Below are positions 1-2,713 of a DNA stretch of 64,000 bases, piece by piece. Numbering within the stretch: position 1 is the stretch's first letter; each line of letters starts with the position of its first letter. The position numbers were made by a program, and so were the translations under genes. The notes under the pieces were generated by a model. That model was not told the DNA's origin and searched no databases. It saw only the letters and a program-made list of their open reading frames with translations. This DNA comes from a virus, in the IMG/VR virus record IMGVR_UViG_3300032286_001614, positions 7,746-71,745 of that record. One strand, written 5' to 3'.

Positions 1-2713
1 GAAATAAAGCATAAGCATCTCCCTTTTTAACACTTTGAACAAAGTCAACTGTATATCCATCTGTTTTATCTCCACCATATTTCAAATAAGATCCCGTATC
101 TGTTCTTAGCTCTCTAGTAGATGGGATTGTTTTGGATTTAGAAGCAAATATTTTAGCGAAATTAGGAATAAATCCAGATGCTATAGAAATACCACCAGAG
201 GAATTTTTGTTTTGCGGAAAAATATTTCCTTTTGGACTATAAAAATTTGCTTTATCACTTAATGAATTAAATAAAGAAACTTCTCTTTCATTAGAATAAG
301 TCTTTATATTATCTGACATATCTGTATCTCCTATATTCTTAAAGTATCTTACTAGCAAGTCTGAACTTACTCCAATTTTACCTCCAGAAGCTACTTGCAT
401 AAACTTTTCTGAACCTAATCTATTAAATAGCTTTTCTAATTTCCGTGGACTAGTATAAATTCTATCAGATCTTATCTGATCTACCATAATAGCTGAACTA
501 AGTCCTGTTACATCAGAACCAATTTTATCTCCAAAATTTAATTTACTAAATTTTCCAAAATTTCTTTTGTCTATATTTTCAAAACCTGCAAATCTTAAAC
601 CTTGTTTAAAACTTGTTGTAGTTGGAACTATTCCTGGTTTCGTATTGTTTCTTGAGGCAGCAAGATAACGCATCAAATCATTAAAATTATGAATTCCTCC
701 TATGTCTTCCCAACTTCCAGCATACGCAGCTGATTTAAATTTTGACGAATCTTCCATCCCGTATTTTGAAGACATACCACGGTAAAGAGTGGTCATTTTT
801 GGTGCAAAATTAGGAATAAATCCACCCGCCGCATTAATTTTTCTTGCGCCTGATGGAAGACCCATTTGCTTAACCATGTTTCTATTAAACACAGCAGTTC
901 CACCGAATGCATAATTTGGAACTACATATTCATCTGTATTTACAACAGCTGTTCCCCTTTTGCCGTTACCAAAATTAAAATTAGGCATTACGACTGGTCT
1001 AGCAGATGATGAAGCTCCGCCAATACCTTTTCTTATTGCGGACATTTCTTCTTGAATAGGAGAGTAACCACCAGCAAAAATACCAGTTTTACCTAATGAT
1101 CTTAATTGATTTAATGCCGTTGGAGAAACTTTTCCTAATGAAGAAATTTCATTTGTTCTCTGAACATTTTGCGCAGCACGTAATGCATTTTGTTTTGCTA
1201 AAATTTCTAAAATAATTTTTTCTTTTTCTACTATACCAGTAACTAAAGAAAGACGAACTTTATCTTCGGATGAAGCAGAAGCTAATAACGTATTTAATCC
1301 ACGAATTGCATCAAGTTCTTTTGCGCGACCAGGAAATAATCCAACTACGTCATCTTTTACTACTGAAAATGTTCTTTTTAAAACAGTATTTAATAAAGCT
1401 CCAATAGCAACTATACCTGGTCCACTTAATACATTACCAAGTCCTTTTAAAAATCCACCAGCGATAGATTCTCCAAAGTTTTGAATTTCAGGATCTTTCC
1501 CTGCTCCACGCAATGAATCAAGAAAAACATTTATAACTTTATTTCCTGATAATATTTCTCGAAGTAATGGAGCTATTGTAATTTTACCAATCGAATCACC
1601 TATTTCTGTGGAGCTTGTTTTGAAATTTTGAATTAAACTATCAAGAGATTTATTTAAAGCATCATTTCTTTTTTGCGCTTCTACAGTAGCACTAGAAGCC
1701 GCATATGTTGCTTGTTCAACAACATTATAAGATTTAGCTAAATCAGTAACGATTGCCCTAAATTGATTGACTTGATAAATACCCGCAGAAATTTCTGCAA
1801 CAACTTGCTGCTGACTTTTTGTTAATGAATCAAATCTTCCACCTAAATTAGCTAAAATCTTATCAGCCGATAAAGCTTCACCACTTAAATCTCTTACAGC
1901 AATACCAAATGATTCAAGCTGATCTAATACTTCTGGACGTTGTATTCTAGTAAAAATAGTTTTAAAAGCATTACCAATTACAGCACCACCTCTAGCAGTA
2001 ATTTGCTGTGCAGAAGTTATAATACCTAATAATTTGTTAAAAGTTACACCAGAGTCCTGAGCAGTAGAACCTACGCGAGAAATAGCTTCAGCTAAGTCTT
2101 TTGTAGATATAGCAAACTTAGTATCAACTGCAACTAACTTATTAATTACTTGACTTGCTGTTAGACTTTCTTTAGAAAAACCATTAATCGCACTGGTTAA
2201 AGAATCAACAGAATTTGCTGCATCTAATCCAGATAATCTTGATAAAATGAGAGCTGAATTTACTCTTTTTAGCGTTTCTTCAGCACCAAGACCTTGACGA
2301 GAGAACTCAAGCGCAGCTTTTGCCGCTACATCAAAAGGCTGTGATGCATTTCTAGCAACATCAAAAAGATCTTTCTTAAATGAAGATAATTGTTTTGAAG
2401 ATAAAGACAGAACTGAATTAATATCTAAAAGAGATTTTTCTACACTTATTGTAGAAGATACTATTTGATTAAAAATTCTAACTGTTCCACCTAAAGCTAA
2501 TGCTGAAGCTCCGAATGTTAAAACACGTTGATTCGCAGCATCTAATGAACTTCCAATCTGATCAATACCAGTTCTAATTCTTCCCAATGGAGCAAGTGAA
2601 GCTCTTTCATTGAATTGAAAATTTAATTTCTGTGTTTTTTCAAGTTCTCTAATCTGCCTCAAAATTGGAGCAGTTTCGATTCTTGCCGATAGTGTGACCG
2701 ATGAAGTTGCCAT
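1..2713 (-). CDS. tape measure protein (TP901-like N-terminus) with C-terminal enzyme-like cargo domains; continues beyond left edge
   Basis: Not in ORF track; hand translation from ATG at 2713 (MATSSVTLSARIE...) gives TMP-type sequence (AALEFSRQG, DLAEAISRVGSTA, ARGGAVIGNAFKTIFTRI); lies downstream of tail tube and chaperone genes. Confidence 0.9.
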   Translation of the reverse strand, partial: MATSSVTLSARIETAPILRQIRELEKTQKLNFQFNERASLAPLGRIRTGIDQIGSSLDAANQRVLTFGASALALGGTVRIFNQIVSSTISVEKSLLDINSVLSLSSKQLSSFKKDLFDVARNASQPFDVAAKAALEFSRQGLGAEETLKRVNSALILSRLSGLDAANSVDSLTSAINGFSKESLTASQVINKLVAVDTKFAISTKDLAEAISRVGSTAQDSGVTFNKLLGIITSAQQITARGGAVIGNAFKTIFTRIQRPEVLDQLESFGIAVRDLSGEALSADKILANLGGRFDSLTKSQQQVVAEISAGIYQVNQFRAIVTDLAKSYNVVEQATYAASSATVEAQKRNDALNKSLDSLIQNFKTSSTEIGDSIGKITIAPLLREILSGNKVINVFLDSLRGAGKDPEIQNFGESIAGGFLKGLGNVLSGPGIVAIGALLNTVLKRTFSVVKDDVVGLFPGRAKELDAIRGLNTLLASASSEDKVRLSLVTGIVEKEKIILEILAKQNALRAAQNVQRTNEISSLGKVSPTALNQLRSLGKTGIFAGGYSPIQEEMSAIRKGIGGASSSARPVVMPNFNFGNGKRGTAVVNTDEYVVPNYAFGGTAVFNRNMVKQMGLPSGARKINAAGGFIPNFAPKMTTLYRGMSSKYGMEDSSKFKSAAYAGSWEDIGGIHNFNDLMRYLAASRNNTKPGIVPTTTSFKQGLRFAGFENIDKRNFGKFSKLNFGDKIGSDVTGLSSAIMVDQIRSDRIYTSPRKLEKLFNRLGSEKFMQVASGGKIGVSSDLLVRYFKNIGDTDMSDNIKTYSNEREVSLFNSLSDKANFYSPKGNIFPQNKNSSGGISIASGFIPNFAKIFASKSKTIPSTRELRTDTGSYLKYGGDKTDGYTVDFVQSVKKGDAYALF

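Follow-up and report, generated by a model that had tools for sequence, protein, structure and literature searches.

The 64,000-nucleotide stretch of DNA analysed here (the window) comprises bases 7746-71745 (G000:C1) of the 71,745-base IMG/VR virus record IMGVR_UViG_3300032286_001614 (L001), and the subject of this report is the gene at its left end, which encodes a tape measure protein (TMP) carrying an array of modules punctuated by a short conserved motif. The record is linear, is estimated to be 47% complete and has a G+C content of 30.2%; its source is an uncultured, AT-rich (30% G+C) tailed phage. The TMP open reading frame (ORF) lies on the minus strand, where window positions 2-2713 encode its N-terminal 904 amino acids (aa), and goes on leftwards past the window to the contig end. 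In the whole record it covers L001:1-10458 and specifies at least 3486 aa, still open at the contig end. The tape measure core occupies aa 121-305 (window 1799-2353, minus strand) and was recognised by PF10145 with 94.8 bits against a cut-off of 33.2 (E 8e-27). TIGR01760 matched aa 78-375 with 122.7 bits against a cut-off of 28.8 (E 1.7e-35), and PHROG tape measure families matched as well, the best being phrog_4211 (E 3.9e-52). The minus-strand ORF is therefore a TP901-type tape measure protein.

Following this core, the motif G[FYH][IV]PNFA occurs six times in the TMP, starting at aa 631, 847, 1008, 1232, 1343 and 1420. All six matches lie in the TMP frame, with none in the other five frames of the record, and 2e-5 would be expected from protein composition, so that the number exceeds chance. 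The motif search places the first two copies, both GFIPNFA, within the window on the minus strand, at aa 631-637 (window 803-823, in the context AAGGFIPNFA) and aa 847-853 (window 155-175). The six copies enclose five modules, all on the minus strand: D1 (aa 638-846, 209 aa, window 176-802), D2 (aa 854-1007, 154 aa, its first 51 aa at window 2-154), and, left of the window, D3 (aa 1015-1231, 217 aa), D4 (aa 1239-1342, 104 aa, L001:6433-6744) and D5 (aa 1350-1419, 70 aa, L001:6202-6411). The rest of D2, modules D3-D5 and motif copies 3-6 lie between L001:6181 and L001:7896. A preliminary description of the locus, made from the 904 aa in the window, had named the gene as a TMP and had delimited the 209-aa segment between two GFIPNFA copies; both statements hold, as do the minus-strand positions it gave for LYRG (window 776-787, aa 643-646), PTTTS (611-625) and NEREV (278-292, aa 808-812), and the leftward extension that it proposed raised the count from two motifs to six, with five modules. 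None of these modules matched Pfam at E <= 10 or NCBIfam at E <= 1, the exception being a weak match of D3 to TIGR04442 that stays below the cut-off of 150 bits (E 0.014, 14.1 bits), and within the array PHROG matches were confined to D4. Immediately ahead of the first motif lies a conserved segment (aa 560-630, window 824-1036, minus strand) that holds the degenerate motif copies VMPNFN and VVPNYA and is 48-92% identical in L008, L002-L005, L012, L014-L016 and L018. By eye, this segment looks like module D5.

The same organisation is found in many other tape measure proteins. Of 2293 candidates scored in a search with TMP aa 560-1500, 133 proteins reached E <= 0.001, and the best 120 of these, which were used here, are metagenomic giant TMPs of 2035-5468 aa. 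Precomputed annotations place PF10145 in 118 of these 120 proteins, and PF02557, PF10386 and PF09718, each in a single protein, are the sole further families. Together the 120 proteins contain 625 motif copies, from 1 to 15 per protein with a mode of 4, and a logo of 633 instances gives the consensus AAGG[FY][IV]PNFA, in which G, P and N are invariant. The 507 inter-motif segments of at least 30 aa fall into 67 single-linkage clusters, the largest of which is an artefact whose segments contain unrecognised motifs. A Pfam scan of four whole relatives (with 9, 12, 15 and 12 motifs) found no family inside the array; VanY and NlpC/P60 cell-wall hydrolase domains are present in P0004 and P0010 far downstream of it (aa 3280-3362 and 3636-3709). 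The motif array also occurs in 11 IMG/VR loci. It is absent from all 50,697 isolated-phage records searched, 161 of which match the N-terminal core only, with 24-32% query coverage in the 25 that were listed.

A close relative reveals what happens at the motif. Locus L008, which lies on the same contig as L030, encodes a TMP that is 83% identical to the window TMP over aa 1-854, and its array runs D1 (71%), D3 (80%), a 235-aa module without counterpart in the window TMP, D4 (87%) and D5 (90%). Relative to L008, the window TMP carries D2 and a single motif (161 aa) as a precise insertion: it reads ...SIASGFIPNFA-[D2]-...LANGYVPNFA-KKTPFESQFEML, and L008 reads ...SIASGHIPNFA followed directly by KKTPFESQFEML, the start of D3. 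At the site of the extra module of L008, the window TMP runs ...GMAGGHIPNFA-NMRLPRAQLA uninterrupted. Comparing homologous TMPs for swapped modules, as had been suggested beforehand, therefore uncovered differences of exactly one module plus one motif. Because whole modules are inserted or deleted together with one motif exactly at the motif, they are real swappable cassettes. D1 itself appears in a different context in P0001, P0002 and P0121, where D5 follows it directly. Thus the motif delimits independent modules in the TMP array and marks the joints at which phages gain, lose and exchange whole modules. The six motif copies have 10-17 nucleotides (nt) of DNA in common (TTCCTAATTT plus flanks), a length that would be enough to guide recombination, and such homology may well be what these exchanges use.

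We consider module D1 a candidate divergent ADP-ribosyltransferase (ART) of the cholera-toxin group (aa 638-846, window 176-802, minus strand). Its known family consists of five sequences from four lineages: the window TMP, P0001, P0002, P0121 and L008. Among 1.84 billion representatives, searched exhaustively, P0121 was the sole match; profile searching of proteins 390-2000 aa long added no relatives, and the D1 loci comprise two in IMG/VR and two in metagenomes, all of the P0121 type; a backbone scan for further copies returned the contig of L008 only. At 29-30% identity, the blocks that remain conserved are T.L[YF]RG, G.[IV]P...[SN][FL]K.A..F and E.EVS[LF][FL]N. The first contains R645 (codon at window 779-781, minus strand) within TLYRG, the candidate catalytic arginine. 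The second contains PTTTS (aa 697-701, window 611-625, minus strand), a degenerate S-T-S-like site followed by FKQGLRFAG; the relatives have PTSRS or PFSRN here, and a two-residue register shift gives [TS]-x-[SN]. The third contains the E-x-E motif E809-R-E811 (window 281-289, minus strand) within YSNEREVSLF, a site with the family pattern E-[REK]-E-V-S-[LF]. No substitution occurs at R645, E809 or E811 (R8, E172 and E174 of D1) in any of the five sequences, whether in the four-sequence alignment or in L008. Between the second and third blocks lies a probable helical insertion (aa 748-807, window 293-472, minus strand), which is modelled entirely as helices and is the sole part of the D1 model to reach a block pLDDT of 62-84. 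If D1 is an ART, R645 and E809-x-E811 would be catalytic, TTTS would be a degenerate S-T-S, and the helical insertion of about 60 aa would precede the strand bearing E-x-E.

The three blocks were compared with matrices for the arginine, S-T-S and E-x-E blocks of ARTs, derived solely from genuine enzymes: 23 enterotoxin-A family proteins and, taken from bacterial genomes, 6 Scabin-like domains. Of the seven matches to the Scabin-like family (PF22596), which came from 5 of 401 genomes, six entered the matrices, and L029, covering 43 aa of the model, was left out as a fragment; NarE (PF21641), with matches in 0 of 401 and 0 of 2 genomes, is not in the matrices. The one top-scoring position of each matrix on the D1-family alignment falls at LYRG, IVPTTTSF and NEREVSLF, respectively, which is the right order, and the three-block chain scores 19.5. 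Column-shuffled alignments scored -3.9 +/- 2.9 (maximum 10.0) and shuffled matrices -2.2 +/- 3.4 (maximum 12.2), so that 0 of 1000 and 0 of 500, respectively, reached 19.5, and the reversed alignment (-1.9) and ten other module families (-10.3 to 8.2) were also far lower. Taken alone, the P0001 copy of D1 scores 32.0 and ranks first among 273 modules, near the 36-49 of held-out real ARTs.

Two further lines of evidence point the same way. Low-stringency hhalign produced a colinear alignment of 75 columns (P 0.02) in which LYRG meets the toxins' arginine and TTTS their S-T-S, PTTTS being the best local piece, and hhalign also set the E-x-E of D1 on the E-x-E of the toxin. In a language-model search, D1 led to the NarE, Pertussis_S1/Scabin-like and Lart1 clusters at 0.91-0.94, and the 30%-identical P0121 copy led to NarE and DUF7587 at 0.85. 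On balance, module D1 is predicted to be a very divergent R-S-E ART of the cholera-toxin group, an assignment whose chances of being right or wrong we judge to be about equal.

Several observations count against this assignment. None of the five D1-family sequences matched Pfam at E <= 10, PF01375 is absent from the whole record, and D1 had no match in NCBIfam, PHROGs or PDB sequences. When the full domain was aligned by hhalign with heat-labile toxin A, with the family of that toxin and with Scabin-like domains, none of the comparisons reached significance (P 0.11, 0.33, 0.12 and 0.10), and the alternative hhalign alignments of D1 to ARTs were scattered. An AlphaFold2 model of D1 from four sequences (pLDDT 49, pTM 0.48) consists mostly of helices, lacks a beta core and is unusable, and Foldseek of this unusable model against the PDB gave only uninformative matches at E >= 2.9. 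Scored alone, the window copy reaches 18.8, ranks 11th of 273 and is equalled by 13 of 1000 shuffles, with only its S-T-S site picked, and the L008 copy scores 10.4. By the time the matrix test was designed, the motifs had already been singled out. The language-model atlas gave recognition values of 1901 and 1882, too low for a high score to count as more than weak evidence, and in a third of cases shuffled proteins, too, converge on a single clan with this tool. In the matrix alignment the first serine of S-T-S is a proline, and some 108 aa lie between the S-T-S-like site and E-x-E; the caveats already attached to the motif by the preliminary description, a degenerate S-T-S and an unusually long spacing, were therefore well placed. 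Finally, delivery of the modules to the cell and their enzymatic activity are things that we infer. The original proposal of an R-S-E ART is thus made plausible by the invariant arginine and glutamates, by the matrix test and by the language-model leads, and finds no backing from family models or from hhalign, with P values of 0.02-0.33.

The foremost alternative is that the array does carry cargo while D1 is something other than an ART, its motifs resembling those of ARTs by convergence or chance on a protein of another fold and activity. Such a module would account for the silence of hidden Markov model, profile-profile and fold comparisons, for the largely helical model, for the proline and the long spacing, for the rank of D1 when scanned alone, and for leads from a tool that can converge on one clan from shuffled proteins. 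It would have to explain, however, why the three ART blocks are best-scoring and in order on the family alignment when nulls and control families are far lower, why the conserved blocks of a family this divergent coincide with the catalytic blocks of ARTs, and why two sequences only 30% identical should both lead to NarE. We therefore consider this alternative possible but rather unlikely.

Among the other modules, D2 belongs to a 25-member module family, and its proposed likeness to GNAT enzymes found no support, there being no Pfam match at E <= 10 and no PDB match with a two-sequence profile. D3 was seen by eye to contain a glycine loop, GSGSYK, together with GDLxxxN and VxDxG, resembling small kinases; as a candidate protein-kinase-like module it had no Pfam, NCBIfam kinase or PDB match. 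One module family of the relatives (169-229 aa; P0031, P0032, P0043, P0051, P0053, P0054, P0062 and P0064) has the aminoglycoside phosphotransferase (APH) APH(2'') as its best PDB match (E 0.03 and 0.05), in an alignment of two colinear stretches that brings together the glycine loop and the metal-binding loop, and nothing relevant in Pfam. The extra module of L008 (L008:4942-5646, 235 aa) contains the strings DIHSGN and IFDP, which look aminoglycoside/choline-kinase-like by eye, and had nothing in Pfam at E <= 10. By hhalign, D3, the APH-like family and this extra module are mutually not significant. Three other module families of 160-250 aa, which supply the first modules of relatives such as P0017, P0005 and P0023, show D...E-[AV]-K strings that look PD-(D/E)xK-nuclease-like by eye. 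D4 matches PHROGs of unknown function, namely phrog_2267 (a 112-position profile, E 1.3e-4) and phrog_1676 (E 5.5e-3); both profiles are about 100-112 positions long, that is, small stand-alone families, which suggests that array modules can derive from such phage genes. D5 is the commonest module, matched by 121 of the 507 inter-motif segments. An alignment of 12 D5 sequences (45-87% identity) leaves 26 columns unchanged, and many of these hold charged residues (R, E, D, D, R, N, D, E). D5 has no Pfam family and no PDB match for its profile, and an AlphaFold2 model of D5 with both flanking motifs (12 sequences) is unusable at pLDDT 49.8.

A different explanation is that the modules are structural, serving as spacers or as elements of envelope penetration or packing that tune a very long tail, with the motif as the functional unit (a contact with the tail tube or a chaperone, or a trimer node). 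The failure of every module to match a family with confidence, the much better conservation of the motif than of the sequence between motifs, and the likeness of D5 and the pre-motif segment to parts of the tape measure itself would all fit. Yet the modules range from 47 to more than 500 aa, belong to many unrelated families and are swapped on near-identical backbones, which fits accessory cargo better than a length ruler; indeed, a ruler set by module length is unlikely because unrelated modules sit on near-identical backbones. The match of D4 to small stand-alone phage families, the aminoglycoside phosphotransferases that head the PDB matches of one module family, and the ART-like motifs of D1 likewise speak for cargo, and we regard a purely structural role as decidedly improbable. 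That the long ORF is merely an assembly chimera or a repeat-driven misassembly, as might be suspected from an incomplete linear record whose contig ends inside the ORF in a tandem repeat, has next to no chance of being correct and was rejected, given an ORF without a stop over 10.4 kb despite 30% G+C and the recurrence of this architecture in 11 IMG/VR loci and in 120 proteins that come from several sources and were assembled independently.

The left end of the contig (L001:1-110, outside the window) is a tandem repeat of the 17-aa unit AMGGSVTNEIASVPRMY inside the TMP ORF, and this repeat is probably why the assembly halted there. Repeats of the form Y-A-[SM]-G-G-[SD]-V, related to the AMGGSVTNEIASVPRMY unit, are dispersed over the final 430 aa of the ORF. 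Glycine-zipper-like hydrophobic stretches were noticed at L001:4110-4360 and at about L001:810-960 (TMP aa ~2030-2090 and ~3170-3215), where weak matches to Pfam Gly-zipper families (E 4e-4) and to NF053611 were obtained. They fit membrane insertion of the ejected tape measure, and the long C-terminal part with these segments is probably largely helical.

Elsewhere in the window, the TMP gene is co-oriented with those for the large terminase (20700-23837) and for tail proteins (27020-28915 and 29703-32408); its direct neighbours are without a family match. Large-terminase matches of the terminase ORF (1045 aa, minus strand) lie mainly at aa 502-875, a further one at aa 98-191 being short and weaker, and aa 68-505 are matched by another PHROG, of unknown function. 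The ORF is unusually long and may therefore be a fusion or contain an insertion. The two tail-protein genes, also on the minus strand, are a paralogous pair that both match phrog_5939 (E 1e-55 and 4e-66). There are zero tRNA genes in the 64,000-nt window, 7 of the 10 large window ORFs tested have no PHROG match, and the phage is distant from anything cultured.

Tape measure proteins fill the tail tube, are the first to leave it at infection and help to form the channel, and several carry enzymes. In the mechanism that we propose, the array, set between the TP901-type core and the C-terminal part with every module bounded by AAGG[FY][IV]PNFA, would travel ahead of the DNA into the host envelope or cell, where the modules would act. 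Because tape measure proteins exit the tail before the DNA, the modules would be cargo for that compartment, and D1 would modify a host protein with NAD+, like the injected Alt of phage T4. The motif may be cut, as the preliminary description proposed for a polyprotein, an idea that found no support here, or it may be merely a flexible joint and a site of recombination. A bolder version would make the array a programmable delivery platform, in which the TMP is a polyprotein that is cleaved at each of its motifs on leaving the tail, releasing a phage-specific mix of host-takeover or anti-defence enzymes ahead of the DNA and acquiring new cargo by recombination at the 10-17 nt of shared DNA. Candidates for such cargo would be D1 with its likeness to ARTs, the modules that resemble kinases, and those of relatives that look like nucleases by eye. 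Cutting might then proceed by attack of the invariant asparagine on its own peptide bond. Other asparagine-dependent self-cleaving proteins exist, and scans of the TMP with Pfam and NCBIfam found no protease domain. We consider this version of events, taken as a whole, unlikely.

If the modules are cargo, the at least 120 giant TMPs would hold several hundred database-unrecognised domains that are delivered before any gene expression, and it is among such domains that functions in counter-defence and host takeover are to be expected. Thanks to the ten-residue joint, these domains can readily be found and delimited in metagenomic data, and the joint could also offer a natural plug-in site when phage-delivered proteins are engineered. 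A tail-borne ART, if true, would extend the principle of T4 Alt from the head to the tail channel. D1 also carries a caution, in that motif triads may look convincing while all model-based tests stay silent.

Among known systems, the closest counterparts of D1 itself are the cholera-toxin-group ARTs (heat-labile enterotoxin A, cholera toxin A, NarE, Scabin-like proteins and pertussis S1), with which it shares the order and content of three blocks: an aromatic residue and arginine near the start of the domain, a hydroxyl-rich strand followed by a helix ending in FAG/FG, and E-x-E-V-S. The spacing from arginine to S-T-S, about 52 aa, is also as in the toxins aligned by low-stringency hhalign. 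D1 differs from these enzymes in having no significant sequence or profile match to them, in the proline at the first serine, in the helical insertion of about 60 aa, and in residing inside a phage tail protein, whereas they are secreted. The window copy also lacks the R-x-P-x-E-I stretch that follows the arginine of these ARTs; the P0001 copy has ARPSSEI.

As for the scaffold, TMPs with embedded cell-wall hydrolase domains include those of mycobacteriophage TM4, T5 (Pb2) and SPbeta (YomI). They likewise bring enzymatic domains out of the tail, and the VanY and NlpC/P60 domains of P0004 and P0010 are of this kind; these, however, lie far downstream of the array, whose modules are a separate, unrecognised set. 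With respect to role, T4 Alt is an ART that is packed in the virion and injected with the DNA (PMC5512222), and D1 would also be a virion-borne ART arriving before phage gene expression. The proposed likeness is one of role; Alt is a separate head protein and D1 a module inside a tape measure.

The polyvalent proteins described by Iyer et al. (2017, PMC5512222) combine 2 to 15 conflict-related domains in one polypeptide that is delivered with the invading DNA, and the five unrelated modules of the TMP would be comparable if they act as effectors. Unlike those described in that work, the present protein has a TMP scaffold, one conserved ten-residue motif between modules, and no module recognised by Pfam; in the main text of that article the terms 'tape measure' and 'tape-measure' occur 0 times. 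Finally, the Sle1-type effectors of actinobacterial contractile injection systems, as presented in the abstract of PMC13277306, place diverse exchangeable domains on a TMP-related modular scaffold within a tail-like particle. They are effectors of contractile injection particles and not of phages, and that abstract mentions neither a punctuating motif nor a multi-module array. We found no literature on a TMP with a conserved joint motif and a multi-module array, within a search that covered articles but not their supplements, and the domain tables of PMC5512222 could hold TMP fusions. Our verdict is that the TMP array is a new variant of the virion-delivered polyvalent proteins.

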